Shown here in pieces: positions 20,754-60,688 of a DNA stretch of 64,000 nt (positions within the stretch are counted from its first letter, which is position 1; each line of letters opens with the position of its first letter). The translations under genes were made by a program, and so were the position numbers. The DNA is from Candidatus Poribacteria bacterium. Lineage in GTDB: Bacteria; Poribacteria; WGA-4E; PCPOR2b. The notes beneath the pieces are model-generated. The model had not been told where the DNA came from, searched no databases, and saw only the letters and a list, made by a program, of their open reading frames with translations. The stretch lies in the NCBI GenBank assembly GCA_965116925.1, contig OZ220744.1, positions 5,088,001-5,152,000 on the forward strand. Direction: 5' to 3'.

Positions 20754-20782
20754 TTGACAACGCTAGGTTGATGTGAAACAAT
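20754..20782 (+). promoter_or_regulatory. Sigma70 promoter for structured leader copy 1
   Basis: TTGACA-N17-AACAAT with extended TG; equivalent promoter precedes copy 2. Confidence 0.55.
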
Positions 20783-20820
20783 AGAAAATTGGGACTGCTA
20801 AGCAAAGCTTAACAGCCCCA

Positions 20821-21037
20821 GTGGGGACTCCGAGTTAGTGGCTCGAAACCCCCCGAAGCAAAACGAGATACAGGCTCGAATCGCTTCATGATTGACAGGT
20901 GAACCAACACCTGACAATCTTTAATAGTATAACCCTTTATGCCAATCGTTTCGATCTAAAACAGAAGGGCTGCGCGATTCGGGTATTTCCGACGCTGCAG
21001 CCCTTTTTTATTTTAGGTCGTTTCGATGGCAACAAGG
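20821..21037 (+). ncRNA. Candidate structured leader RNA / attenuator, copy 1
   Basis: Homologous to 43228-43435 with compensatory stems: three hairpins, then a long hairpin containing a U-tract terminator and occluding the SD. Confidence 0.65.
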
Positions 21038-21045
21038 TATTGACT

Positions 21046-21138
21046 ATGTTAGCAACACAAAGGCGTTGGGTGTTGTTGATTTGTGCATCACTACTAGATG
21101 CTAAAGGGGGCGACAATTTTCGGTACAAAAGTTCATAG
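21046..21138 (+). CDS. Putative 30-aa leader peptide (MLATQRRWVLLICASLLDAKGGDNFRYKSS)
   Basis: ATG 8 nt after the AAGG that closes the leader hairpin, at the position where copy 2 has its gene start. Confidence 0.35.
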   Translation: MLATQRRWVLLICASLLDAKGGDNFRYKSS

Positions 21139-21933: not shown

Positions 21934-23201
21934 TCATTCACCCATCTGTCGAATCGCTTCCTCATAGATCTCCCTGAGCGGCACTCCATGTTGTTCAGCA
22001 AGCCGCTTGCAATCTTCATATTCGGGGACTGTTTTAATTAATTGGCCCTCCAAATATCCGCACTTCGCACGAACGGTTCCCCATTGCGTCTGGATGTCAA
22101 CAAAATCACGAGTCAGTTTGGATCGTTCGACAGTATAGGATCTGATGCCAAATGTCGTCGTTTCTAGGAGAAGCATTTCGCTCAATATATCACGGAGGGA
22201 CGGTGTACAAAGGAGGCTCAGTTTCGTCGCCGGACGGCCTTTCTTCATGAATATCGGCGTCATGAAGACATCGAGAGCACCCCGCTCAAAGAGTTGCTCC
22301 ATCAGGTAGCCTACAATCTCTGGCGACATATCGTCGAGGTTAGTTTCAATTACGCAGACCTGATCACCCTCGATAGTTTTTTTTTACCGACACACAGCCG
22401 CAAGAGGTTCGGTTGCTCCTCAAGGTCGCGTGTGCCGGCACCATAGCCAATTTGGTTGATGGTCATCTCTGGCATTGTACCGAATCCATCCGCAAGCGTC
22501 GTGATAATGGCTGCGCCGGTGGGGGTCACGAGCTCTTTTCGGATTTCGGTCTGTCGGACGGGCACGCCGCGCAACAACTCCATCGTCCCCGGTGCGGGGA
22601 CAGGCATGAATCCGTGGGCGCACCGAACAAAACCGCCGCCGAGCGATAGTGGAGAGGCATAAATCTCATCGACTGCTAGCAGATGTAGCCCAATAACAGC
22701 TCCAACGATGTCCACAATCGCATCAATGCCGCTGACTTCGTGCAGATGCACCTGATCTTTAGAAGTGTTGTGAACTTTCGCTTCCGCCGCTGCCAGTCGA
22801 TCAAAGATCTGCTTTGCGCGATCAATGATTACTGCATCAAGATCGCTATTGTCCAAGACGGCAAAAATATCGGACAGGTGACGGCTTGGACCGTGTGTGT
22901 GCGGGTGATCATGATGTTCGTGGCTATGGTCATGATCATGGTCGTGGGTGTGATGGTGATGTGCTGCTGGGGAATCGTTGTGGACGTGTGAATCTCCAGT
23001 CGAATCCTCTGTTTCCACGACCGCCCATGTGCCACTGATGCTGTGTTTCGTGGCTTCCTCGAAACGCAGCGTAAATTCGTCCAACTTCAACTTTGCCAAC
23101 TCTCCATTCAGTGCGTCCGGATCGACGCCTGCATTGACCAAGGCACCAAGCACCATATCTCCACTTATACCTGAGAAACAATCGAAATAAGCGATCTTCA
23201 A
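21934..23201 (-). CDS. larC: Nickel-pincer cofactor nickel insertase LarC, split by a -1 frameshift at A9C
   Basis: YFDCFSGISGDM, His-rich stretch, HLHEVSGIDAIVDI, ELVTPTGAA in ORF1; the -1 frame continues IETNLDDMSPE...MKKGRP...ETTTFGIR...PEYEDC. Confidence 0.92.
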
Positions 23202-43045: not shown

Positions 43046-43082
43046 AAAAAAGCCCCACGGAAGACATTCCACGGGGCTTTTT
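43046..43082. terminator. Bidirectional intrinsic terminator
   Basis: AAAAAAGCCCC...GGGGCTTTTT. Confidence 0.65.
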
Positions 43083-43193
43083 ACATCCTAACAACCTGCC
43101 AAGCTAAAACTCAAGTTTATCCCACCGTTCTCTAAACTCCTCCTGCTGAAATAGAACAATCACTCTTAAAAAAATATAATAATAAAAAAAGTA

Positions 43194-43222
43194 TTGACAG
43201 CATTCTAAATATAATATAGGAT
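43194..43222 (+). promoter_or_regulatory. Sigma70 promoter for structured leader copy 2
   Basis: TTGACA-N17-TAGGAT with an A-rich UP element; the motif starts about 6 nt downstream. Confidence 0.7.
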
Positions 43223-43227
43223 AGGAT

Positions 43228-43435
43228 GTGGGCTCCGAGTGCTCTCTCGAAGCCCACTGAAGCAAAACGAGTAGGAGCTCGAATCGCTTCGTGATTGTTA
43301 GACTGCAATCTAACAACCACTGATAGTATACACCCTTTACGCCGTTAGTTTCGATCTAAATAAAAAGGGGCTGCACGATTCGGGACCATCCGACCATGCA
43401 GCCCCCTTTTTTTAGGTCAACTAGCAGCTACAAGG
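43228..43435 (+). ncRNA. Candidate structured leader RNA / attenuator, copy 2
   Basis: Homologous to 20821-21037, with the same hairpin order and compensatory changes. Confidence 0.65.
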
Positions 43436-43446
43436 AAAGTAACAAC

Positions 43447-45111
43447 TTGAATAGAAAAACAGCAGATAGGATTTATCATCCAGAGCACGATTCCAGTCTC
43501 ACGCGAAGACAATTTATAGAACGATTTTCCACTGCGGGACTAGCTCTCAGCAGTTTAGGACTTTTAGGTTGCGATGTTGGAGATATAATGTCGCCGGTTC
43601 GTACGCCTACAGAGATTGATAGCGACGTGCCTGCTCTCATTATTGGCAGTGGATTTGGAGGCGCGGTAACAGCCTTGAGATTGGGGCAAGCGGGTATCCC
43701 GACGATGGTCTTAGAACGAGGCAAACGCTGGAATAGCGCATCTGCACCGTTTAGTCCTAATTTCCCGCCTGACGGTCGTTCAACGTGGTTACGCAACAAA
43801 ACGGTTTTGCCGTTCGGTCCATCATTGCCTATCGGGAAATATACAGGGGTCTTGGACCGTGTGGATTACCCGAACATGAATGTCTATCGAGGGGCAGCTG
43901 TCGGTGGCGGCTCCATTGTATACGGTGGGGTTAGCCTGCAACCCCCTGAAGATCTTTTCTATCAGATTTTTCCGAGCAGTATCTCCTATCAAGAACTGCT
44001 GCCCTATTATGAACGCGTCCGCCACATACTGAATATCACGACGGTTCCCGCAGACATCGAAGCACAACCCCACTACGATTACACCCGCGTATTTACCCAA
44101 CTCGTAAACCAGGCCGGGATAGACACCATAAAGCTCGGGCAAGCCACGGATTGGGATATTGTCCGCGCTGAGATTGATGGCACGCGCCCACCGTCTGCTA
44201 TTATCGGCGAAGCAGCTTATGGCGGTAATAGCGGATACAAAAATTCTCTCGATAAAAACTATCTACCGATGGCGGAAGCGACAGGGTATGTCCGTATCCA
44301 TCCACTGCATCGCGTTATCGACATCACAACAGAAAACAGCGGTAAATATGTTGTAACAGTTGAGCAGATTGATGAGACGGGCGAGGTAATACAGACGAAA
44401 AAAATTGCCACGACTTACCTCTTTCTCGCTGCCGGCTCTATAGGCACGACAGAGTTGCTCGTAAAAGCCCGCGAGCTCGGCAATTTGCCAAATCTCAACA
44501 ACGCAGTTGGGCACGGATGGGGGACGAATGGGAGTCTCTTATTTAGCACGGGTGTGGGTATAGAAACTGGAAAGCAGCAAGGCGGCCCGCTCATCATAGC
44601 TATTTTAGATCGTGAGAATACAGAGTCTCCCGCGTTCATTAACCCCCCTTTCTTCCCTGTAGGTGTGGAATGTAGGTGTTTAATGCTTTATATGAACGCT
44701 CTACAAACCGAGCGCGGGCATTTTGTCTACGATACAGCCACCCACAGGGCGGAATTGATGTGGCCCGCCGGAGGTCACGACCGCGCTGCATATGCAGCAG
44801 CAGATTTCGTCGAGCGTTTGAACGCTGTCAATAAGGGTCAACTTGGTCTATCAGCAGGGATCCCAGCAGACCTTCCCATCAGTCCACCTGATCTCATTGA
44901 AGATATTACATTTACCCCTTTGGGTGGAATGGTGATGGACAAAGCTTGTGATTTGTATGGAAGGGTACACGGCTATCCCAAAATGTATGTAATGGACGGT
45001 TCTGCGTTACCCGGTTCGTGTGCCGCCGCCCCTCCGTCGTTGACGATTGCGGCGTTAGCCGAGCGCAACATAGAAACCATTCTCGCAGAGGATTTTGCCT
45101 CCACAGGTTAG
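43447..45111 (+). CDS. GMC oxidoreductase, cholesterol oxidase (class I)-like, Tat lipoprotein
   Basis: TRRQFI twin-arginine signal, LLGC lipobox, IGSGFGGAVTALRL FAD motif, SLDKNYL, WGTNG, TIAALAERN; TTG start after AAGGA. Confidence 0.85.
   Translation: MNRKTADRIYHPEHDSSLTRRQFIERFSTAGLALSSLGLLGCDVGDIMSPVRTPTEIDSDVPALIIGSGFGGAVTALRLGQAGIPTMVLERGKRWNSASAPFSPNFPPDGRSTWLRNKTVLPFGPSLPIGKYTGVLDRVDYPNMNVYRGAAVGGGSIVYGGVSLQPPEDLFYQIFPSSISYQELLPYYERVRHILNITTVPADIEAQPHYDYTRVFTQLVNQAGIDTIKLGQATDWDIVRAEIDGTRPPSAIIGEAAYGGNSGYKNSLDKNYLPMAEATGYVRIHPLHRVIDITTENSGKYVVTVEQIDETGEVIQTKKIATTYLFLAAGSIGTTELLVKARELGNLPNLNNAVGHGWGTNGSLLFSTGVGIETGKQQGGPLIIAILDRENTESPAFINPPFFPVGVECRCLMLYMNALQTERGHFVYDTATHRAELMWPAGGHDRAAYAAADFVERLNAVNKGQLGLSAGIPADLPISPPDLIEDITFTPLGGMVMDKACDLYGRVHGYPKMYVMDGSALPGSCAAAPPSLTIAALAERNIETILAEDFASTG

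Positions 45112-60613: not shown

Positions 60614-60688
<75 letters not shown>

Follow-up and report, generated by a model that had tools for sequence, protein, structure and literature searches.

Leader RNAs of Poribacteria combine a predicted terminator with Shine-Dalgarno occlusion and may be switched by a predicted antisense RNA

The DNA considered here is a stretch of 64,000 nucleotides (nt) from Candidatus Poribacteria bacterium (assembly GCA_965116925.1, contig OZ220744.1, positions 5,088,001-5,152,000 of the forward strand), referred to below as the window, whose own numbering is used throughout. The host phylum consists of uncultured sponge symbionts. Two copies of one leader RNA lie in the window, copy A (about 20754-21048) and copy B (about 43194-43449), and they can be aligned from a TTGACA promoter until just 5′ of the start codon. 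The stretch that an earlier sequence-only reading had flagged as a regulatory switch is the 3′ half of this repeated leader of about 195 nt. Each unit has the same order: a sigma-70-like promoter, hairpins P1 and P2, an optional hairpin P3, a linker, a long hairpin and an open reading frame (ORF) that begins some 30-40 nt past the U-run; a predicted antisense promoter points back across P3, P2 and P1. The reading developed here, held at about even confidence, takes the flagged stretch as the expression platform of a 5′ leader, flipped between a state in which transcription stops and the Shine-Dalgarno (SD) sequence is hidden and a state in which transcription goes on and the SD is exposed, by a mechanism like that of plasmid pT181 with the predicted antisense RNA.

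Copy B lies on the plus strand and begins with the sense promoter-like site TTGACA-17-TAGGAT (43194-43222; 10/12 matches), with a predicted transcript start at about 43229; the TTGACA is retained in the other copies of the same genome. Three hairpins follow: P1 (43228-43257; GUGGGC..CCGAG-loop-CUCGAAG..GCCCAC), supported by folding and covariation; P2 (43259-43290; GAAGC-AAAA-CGAG-loop-CUCG-AAUC-GCUUC), supported by folding and nearly invariant; and P3 (43291-43320), which is variable, backed by folding and covariation, and missing from a short subfamily. The 3′ strand of P2, CUCGAAUCG (= CTCGAATCG) at 43278-43286, is the one named as antiterminator by the sequence-only reading. The linker carries, on the minus strand, the predicted antisense promoter TCGAAA-18-TATACT (43325-43354), whose hexamers are the conserved linker motifs GTTTCGA and AGTATA, and an anti-SD, CCCUUU (43333-43338, containing CCTT), able to pair either with the SD or with the AAAGGG that opens the 5′ strand of the terminator. 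The long hairpin is built from a lower 5′ strand (43339-43366; P4a, P4b and an A-run, supported by covariation), a terminator-like hairpin (43367-43413) and a lower 3′ strand that runs through the start codon (43414-43449; SD AAGGA 43432-43436, TTG 43447-43449). Within the terminator, stem strand GGGGCTGC (43367-43374) pairs with GCAGCCCC (43398-43405), the apical part (43375-43397) holds CGATTCGGG (= motif CGAUUCGGG) at 43376-43384, and a U-run of seven T occupies 43407-43413. The TTG opens the gene regulated by this copy, a GMC-family oxidoreductase (43447-45111, plus strand). Between the upstream periplasmic-binding-protein gene and copy B, a further hairpin, AAAAAGCCCCACGG...CCACGGGGCTTTTT (43049-43083), with an A-run and a T-run on its two flanks, was noticed by eye; it resembles a two-way terminator and could also end the antisense transcript of copy B.

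Copy A, likewise on the plus strand, opens with TTGACA-17-AACAAT (20754-20782), with a TG ahead of the second hexamer. Between this site and P1 stands an extra hairpin of 14 pairs with the tail ATTTTCTATT (20790-20820, listed without a strand), which a terminator tool scored as a minus-strand terminator; it is confined to A-type copies (copy A of the window, L034 and L049) and is a possible end of the antisense RNA. P1, P2 and P3 span 20822-20919, the P2 3′ strand being CUCGAAUCGC (= CTCGAATCGC) at 20875-20884. The predicted antisense promoter, TCGAAA-17-TATACT, lies at 20926-20954 on the minus strand, and the long hairpin (20933-21048) has its anti-SD CCCUUU at 20933-20938 and its SD AAGG at 21034-21037. 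The terminator (20967-21003) pairs GGGCTGC (20967-20973) with GCAGCCC (20997-21003) around the apical motif GCGAUUCGGG (= GCGATTCGGG; 20974-20983) and is followed by the U-run TTTTTTATTTT (21004-21014). The ORF behind copy A has 29-32 codons only and is not retained in L034 or L049.

The architecture of both copies recurs across the family. An RNAalifold consensus of 54 distinct leader copies (alignment A3) consists of P1, P2, P3 and the linker, then one long hairpin in layers: CCUU paired with AAGG of the SD at the base, P4a and P4b in the middle, and the terminator stem P5 at the top. Its 56 pairs are formed in 93.9% of cells (39-53% in slid controls), and changes on both sides occur at 20 of the 56, as against 13.6 +/- 1.9 in shuffles, none of 500 of which reached 20. 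P1, P3, P4a, P4b and P5 covary, with both-side changes at 6/12 pairs of P1, 5/9 of P3, 3/6 of P4a and 4/5 of P4b; P2 is almost invariant, and the anti-SD:SD helix varies one-sidedly. Non-standard cells also disclose the strand on which the structure acts: in the 3′ half G-U pairs outnumber A-C mismatches by 193 to 27 (162 to 27 in the lower-hairpin cells of P4a and P4b), and in 42/53 copies the sense-strand version of the long hairpin is the more stable one (-47.9 vs -40.1 kcal/mol). The 3′ half carries the signature of sense-strand RNA structure.

The sequence-only reading had described a GC stem followed by a U-tract in both copies and a long hairpin whose base pairs CCTT with the AAGG of the SD, 8-11 nt before the start codon. 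Both descriptions are exact in the two copies, AAGG standing 8 nt 5′ of ATG 21046 in copy A (21034-21037) and 11 nt 5′ of TTG 43447 in copy B (43432-43435), and both extend to the family. The terminator stem (helix 8 of the consensus) is 98.8% paired, and a GC stem of 8-11 base pairs (bp) with 6-9 U within the next 9 nt is found in 53/53 copies; these hairpins escaped a simple terminator scan, which admits loops of no more than 8 nt. The SD is paired with a CCUU-type motif in the minimum-energy fold of the 3′ half in 51 of the 52 scorable copies, the other two of the 54 being L007 (no SD by pattern) and L041 (no terminator). In most copies the start codon follows 17-46 nt past the U-run. As predictions, terminator and SD occlusion are solid. 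Since P4a and the anti-SD:SD helix lie beyond the U-run, the conserved structure needs read-through, which points to a cis-acting leader and not merely a terminated small RNA. A natural variant, L041 (893-1029, minus strand), has P1-P3 and lacks the entire terminator hairpin; its CCCUUC is followed directly by AAAAAGGAG and ATG.

The antiterminator proposed by the sequence-only reading rests on a long-range pairing between the P2 3′ strand and the apical segment of the terminator. This complementarity is exact in both copies of the window, and in the 54 copies columns 70-79 (CUCGAAUCGC) and 179-188 (GCGAUUYGRG) form standard pairs in 97.4% of the cells of the ten pairs, falling to 13-50% when the partner is slid by 1-3 columns. 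In a single sequence it is only mildly unusual: a run as long arises in 133/2000 shuffles of the apical segment for copy B (9 nt) and in 57/2000 for copy A (11 nt); conservation is what gives it weight. Two variable apical positions alternate between bases that are both compatible with pairing (U-G in 30 copies and U-A in 24; G-C in 29 and G-U in 24). In L014 the long-range G-C has become A-U, and the same change breaks the inner helix of P2; an identical G-to-A change in the matching CUCGAA strand of P1 occurs in four related copies, again with U opposite in the apical motif. These changes (four copies in P1, one in P2), found only where the apical base opposite is U, break P1 or P2 and keep the long-range pair, and thereby point to that pairing, though they represent two events at most. 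A scan of all column pairs gave no other alternative helix of at least 4 pairs with strong covariation; it yielded only two longer compatible runs, the 9-pair run of the sequence-only reading and one of 6 pairs that joins the apical motif to the 3′ strand of P1.

Folding of nascent transcripts bears on the same pairing. When transcripts end just before the 3′ strand of the terminator, the long-range helix has a probability above 0.5 in 32/53 copies, among them 22 of the 23 with a short loop of 11 nt; the values are 0.50 for copy A and 0.00 for copy B. Short-loop copies have only 3 nt between the apical motif and the 3′ stem strand, so the 10-bp long-range helix and the terminator stem are judged, from pseudoknot geometry, to be mutually exclusive there. 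Forcing the antiterminator fold costs only about 6 kcal/mol in L003 and L005. The pairing appears plausible family-wide and weak for copy B.

A second contact may work alongside the first. In forced folds and in folds of shortened transcripts the anti-SD CCCUUU pairs with AAAGGG, made up of the A-run and the first bases of the terminator 5′ strand; a run of at least 6 such pairs is available in 47/53 copies, and the contact is present in the minimum-energy fold of copy B ended at 43384. With transcripts ended right after the apical motif, the terminator 5′ half is at least 70% paired upstream in 40/53 copies. The CCCUUU strand could thus alternate between two partners, hiding the SD in the off state and blocking the first part of the terminator in the on state. 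According to the predictions, the weight of the two contacts would differ from copy to copy, A using both and B only CCCUUU-AAAGGG.

The covariance model also reveals a shorter subfamily without P3, whose apical loop lacks complementarity to the P2 3′ strand. Here an 11-bp helix joins the top of P2, GAGUAGUCCCUC, to the 5′ stem strand of the terminator (-18 to -21 kcal/mol, z -2.5 to -3.5, with 0-4 of 200 shuffles as good), and this antiterminator is in the minimum-energy fold of all six shortened transcripts (6/6), the six sequences being close relatives. By these folds the short subfamily has a classic antiterminator that sequesters the terminator 5′ stem. Two subfamilies that follow the same logic with different sequences provide the strongest argument for a real choice between terminator and antiterminator.

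The 5′ domain directs attention to the opposite strand. A promoter scan places a sigma-70-like minus-strand site, TCGAAA-17/18-TATACT, in both copies (43354 to 43325 and 20954 to 20926), and its hexamers coincide with the two best conserved linker motifs, GUUUCRA and AGUAUA. Among the 54 copies, 53 keep a -35 like TTGAAA or TCGAAA at 17 nt (48 copies) or 18 nt (5) from TATACT, and the short form has, by eye, TTGACA-17-TATACT. P3, P2 and P1 fill exactly the interval that separates the antisense site from the sense start. Predicted stability favours the antisense strand for P1 in 52/53 copies (-20.4 vs -16.1 kcal/mol), for P2 in 53/53 (-13.6 vs -8.8 kcal/mol) and for P3 in 33/53; nearly all non-standard cells in P1 hold A-C, a combination that becomes G-U on the opposite strand. 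P1 and P2 carry the signature of antisense-strand structure, and this strand asymmetry of folding provides independent support for an antisense RNA.

The loops are variable, with 27-30 distinct sequences among 53 copies and an entropy of 0.98-1.4 bits, against 0.33 in the stems, which is what copy-specific kissing-loop recognition would look like. The internal loop of P2 has an invariant 3′ side; on its 5′ side a single position is variable, with an entropy of 1.21 bits. The 5′ domain looks like an antisense-RNA target, not an aptamer; the likeliest trigger would be the predicted antisense RNA rather than a metabolite, and in-line probing with metabolites, suggested by the sequence-only reading, is probably the wrong test. 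That reading had also noted a likeness between the apical motif and hairpin 2 in its antisense version, and had considered mimicry of a protein-binding site. The likeness is real, with 8 of 10 bases shared with the reverse complement of the P2 3′ strand; it can be put down to one and the same strand being the complement of the apical motif and of the predicted antisense RNA, an explanation that seems simpler than protein mimicry, for which there would be no need.

These elements suggest a two-state mechanism. In the OFF state, the antisense RNA would pair with the nascent 5′ domain, probably starting from the variable loops; the P2 3′ strand would become unavailable and the terminator would fold, and transcripts that read through would keep their SD paired with CCCUUU. 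In the ON state, without antisense RNA, the P2 3′ strand CUCGAAUCGC would invade the apical motif GCGAUUCGGG of the terminator and CCCUUU would pair with the AAAGGG that opens the terminator 5′ strand; closure of the stop hairpin would thereby be prevented, leaving the SD free.

The family is narrowly distributed. A pattern of the three conserved motifs gave 39 matches among 185,579 species (one genome each), 39/39 of them in records of Candidatus or uncultured Poribacteria. The covariance model of the 5′ domain (R2), whose structure was voted from single-sequence folds, matches 25 of 151 sampled Poribacteria genomes: 17/19 in the genus of the window and 3/9, 3/57 and 1/4 in three others, with no match in the searched genomes of the remaining Poribacteria genera. 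Model R1 was dropped in its favour, RNAalifold on a MAFFT alignment of the 5′ domain having given a poor structure. A single genome holds up to 16 R2 matches, some in tandem at a spacing of about 2.4 kb. In the genome of the window a DNA search finds five copies and the covariance model six; the sixth is a weak, divergent match of 37 bits at C1:2775196-2775291 (minus strand; L104 597-692), 1.5 kb from the L004 copy. Outside the usual architecture, L096 and L097 (another genus) and L098 show P1, P2 and GUAUAAC joined to an unrelated 3′ part, without the long hairpin or an antisense -35 (by eye).

Database and literature searches place the leader in no described family. With Rfam 15 at the gathering threshold the whole window yields tRNA only, a single gene at 60614-60688 (plus strand), and no family for the leader; in E-value mode, copy B and 14 further loci give chance-level matches only, far below threshold. 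Literature searches on RNA regulators and antisense RNA of Poribacteria found nothing relevant to the leader family. A 'Poribacteria-1 RNA motif', a candidate structured RNA of unknown function from the same phylum, is said to have been named by Weinberg and colleagues in 2017 and might correspond to this leader. The word Poribacteria is absent from the main text of that paper (PMC5737381), and no publication turned up under the name of the motif.

The genes behind the leaders are unrelated to each other (small secreted cysteine-rich proteins, lipoprotein-like proteins, a GMC oxidoreductase) and form no coherent metabolic or transport set. Their products have 92-571 residues, signal-like N-termini and varied extracytoplasmic parts; there is no short hydrophobic toxin among them. 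The GMC oxidoreductase behind copy B matches Pfam GMC_oxred_N, GMC_oxred_C and GMC_oxred_C_1st, with an NCBIfam cholesterol oxidase match far below cut-off, and its N-terminal SRRQF looks by eye like a twin-arginine translocation (Tat) signal. Three other copies of the same genome precede small cysteine-rich proteins (L003 1008-1442, L004 1069-1461 and L005 1163-1441, minus strands), which have in common a signal-like N-terminus (MFSTKGRLKV..LVVG-like) and are otherwise unrelated in their cysteine-rich remainders, so that it looks as if one cassette of promoter, leader and signal had been joined to different payloads. In tandem arrays (L113, which is C1:4230000-4245000 of the same genome, and L114) the leader is followed by a small secreted cysteine-rich protein and then by a membrane-anchored protein of about 350-400 residues; the membrane-anchored proteins have only a C-terminal motif in common, around YG.EEGLRRLRE.DPE. 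Neither Pfam nor NCBIfam has a family for the small proteins or their membrane-anchored partners. Elsewhere in the window, ORFs 21934-22329 and 22350-23201 (minus strand) match a Pfam nickel insertion protein (LarC-like) at profile positions 255-375 and 1-236, apparently one gene split in two.

Several observations weigh against a pT181-like switch. The CUCGAAUCG/CGAUUCGGG helix shows no covariation beyond column make-up, because 229/500 shuffles reach the observed score. In copy B its probability stays at or below 0.19 at every transcript length, and the forced antiterminator fold is worse by 16 kcal/mol in copy B, 14 in copy A and 19 in L004. Even at its best, a duplex of the terminator 5′ half with the 5′ domain is not striking in energy when set beside shuffled sequences (median z -1.5). 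In long-form copies the P2 strand reaches the loop and upper part of the terminator (the apical motif and at most one stem base), and long-loop copies (e.g. A and B) could in principle close the terminator around the long-range helix as a pseudoknot. On the antisense strand P1′ is not followed by a canonical U-run (1-6 U in 10 nt), and a minus-strand terminator was scored only in A-type copies. Small shares of two sponge metatranscriptomes gave six short contigs from relatives less than 95% alike, two of which end near 43371-43374, at the start of the terminator stem; nothing is drawn from these ends, because the contigs show neither strand nor true ends. The leader copies are paralogues as well as orthologues, which makes the counts given above non-independent, and equilibrium folds are a poor stand-in for co-transcriptional kinetics. 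Of the sequence-only reading's proposal of two alternative folds gating transcription and translation, the terminator and SD occlusion stand family-wide and the alternative fold is predicted in nascent transcripts of most copies; the CUCGAAUCG/CGAUUCGGG pairing itself shows no covariation beyond column make-up and is weak for copy B. Its suggested folding along the growing transcript divides in the same manner, with the helix above 0.5 in 32/53 copies and near 0 in copy B.

Some of this evidence would also suit a leader that does not switch at all: a constitutive leaky terminator combined with a translation damper or mRNA stabiliser, in which CUCGAAUCG/CGAUUCGGG is the relic of an inverted duplication of hairpin 2 and any antisense RNA acts through promoter interference or duplex decay only. 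The missing covariation of the long-range pairing, a terminator fold 6-19 kcal/mol more stable than the forced alternative, the failure to predict an alternative at any length in copy B, and the apical motif's 8 of 10 bases in common with the P2 3′ strand reverse complement all agree with it. It remains a fairly unlikely account, however: an apical loop conserved in 53/54 copies across genera is unexpected without function, the short subfamily has an unrelated antiterminator pairing of the same logic, and the internal loop of P2 keeps its 3′ side invariant and varies at one position of the 5′ side. Sensing of a ligand or protein, with P1, P2 and the AGUAUAA strand as sensor and the long hairpin as expression platform, is suggested by the riboswitch-like build (a conserved 5′ domain, an optional P3, conserved unpaired bases, a terminator and SD sequestration) and by the occurrence of the 5′ domain with a different 3′ part in another genus (L096, L097). 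The greater antisense stability of P1 and P2 (52/53 and 53/53) speaks against such sensing, as do the absence of an Rfam 15 family match, the identity of the conserved unpaired motifs with antisense promoter hexamers at a spacing of 17-18 nt plus the anti-SD, and downstream genes for diverse secreted and membrane proteins that form no coherent metabolic set; it is considered unlikely. ANTAR, TRAP and RAT-type protein-binding leaders and self-cleaving ribozymes were dropped as candidates, their motifs being absent (by eye only) and Rfam matches lacking.

The transcript itself might be the product. Most transcripts would then end at the U-run as a stand-alone small RNA of about 190 nt, whose free CCCUUU acts in trans on the SD regions of other mRNAs, the gene behind being secondary. 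A strong promoter and a U-run terminator do bracket the unit, the anti-SD strand has no cis partner in a terminated transcript, and the A-type copies (A, L034 and L049) keep the RNA though the short ORF behind it is not conserved. Yet P4a and the anti-SD:SD helix, which lie beyond the U-run, covary or are kept and so need read-through, and SD and start codon stand at a fixed short distance in nearly all copies; the chance of this account is small. Control at the level of DNA is very improbable indeed. It would treat CTCGAATCGC and GCGATTCGGG, which form an inverted repeat with a spacing of about 90 bp, as operator half-sites for a looping repressor, and as double-stranded DNA the two motifs are indeed one highly conserved site in opposite orientation; they nevertheless fall within RNA helices and loops backed by covariation and G-U asymmetry, the second site is missing from the short subfamily, and no candidate regulator was found.

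If attenuation by the predicted antisense RNA, the preferred reading, is extended to the whole family, Poribacteria would possess a set of sense/antisense attenuators spread over the whole chromosome and orthogonal to one another, each copy with its own kissing-loop code and all with the same stop-and-hide hairpin. This extension is tentative and, on balance, somewhat doubtful. Were it true, each operon for hypervariable secreted proteins could be silenced or released individually; the set would parallel in nature the orthogonal pT181 libraries that have been engineered, and might perhaps serve surface or secretome variation inside the sponge. Confirmation of the preferred reading would make available a natural library of orthogonal RNA switches with joint transcriptional and translational control, and a first handle on how secreted proteins are regulated in these symbionts.

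Type I toxin-antitoxin leaders (e.g. hok/sok and fst/RNAII) sequester the SD in a structured leader, are overlapped by a small antisense RNA and exist as many paralogues with differing recognition loops. The Poribacteria leader is alike in its SD sequestration, its overlapping antisense RNA (here predicted) and the differing loops of its paralogues. It differs in its products, which are diverse proteins of 92-571 residues and not short hydrophobic toxins; a terminator inside the leader is also not typical of type I systems. Riboswitch platforms offer a second comparison. The fluoride crcB riboswitch, mentioned in PMC5435934, has a platform that gates terminator and SD together. Here too one hairpin system, 3′ of a conserved structured domain, would govern both termination and access to the SD, whereas the upstream domain in Poribacteria has an antisense-strand folding signature, face-to-face promoters and no match to an aptamer family.

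Plasmid pT181 supplies the third comparison, with pIP501 and pAMbeta1 as further plasmid systems of its kind. In pT181 repC without antisense RNA, the antiterminator strand of the target hairpin ties up the 5′ part of the terminator; once antisense RNA sequesters this strand, the terminator folds and makes the ribosome-binding site, which lies in the terminator hairpin, inaccessible (PMC5435934). Antisense-driven attenuation is familiar mainly from Gram-positive plasmids, whose copy number it controls, and from its use as a part in synthetic biology (PMC5435934). The Poribacteria unit is alike in having a cis-encoded antisense RNA (here predicted) against the leader, an intrinsic terminator in the leader with an ORF behind it, a strand of the presumed antisense-target hairpin complementary to the terminator 5′ half, and a ribosome-binding site predicted to be hidden by the same hairpin, so that transcription and translation would be gated together. 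It differs in being chromosomal, multi-copy and placed before secreted-protein operons, not before a plasmid rep gene. Its long-form antiterminator meets the loop and top of the terminator, not the 5′ stem; its SD lies at the base of an extended hairpin of about 115 nt, not in the 3′ strand of the terminator; and a second contact, of the anti-SD with the A-run and GGG, is proposed. The leader, unmatched in Rfam 15 and in the searchable literature, would seem to be a variant of known antisense-attenuation control, in which pT181-type logic appears as a reusable chromosomal cassette ahead of fast-diverging secreted-protein operons.

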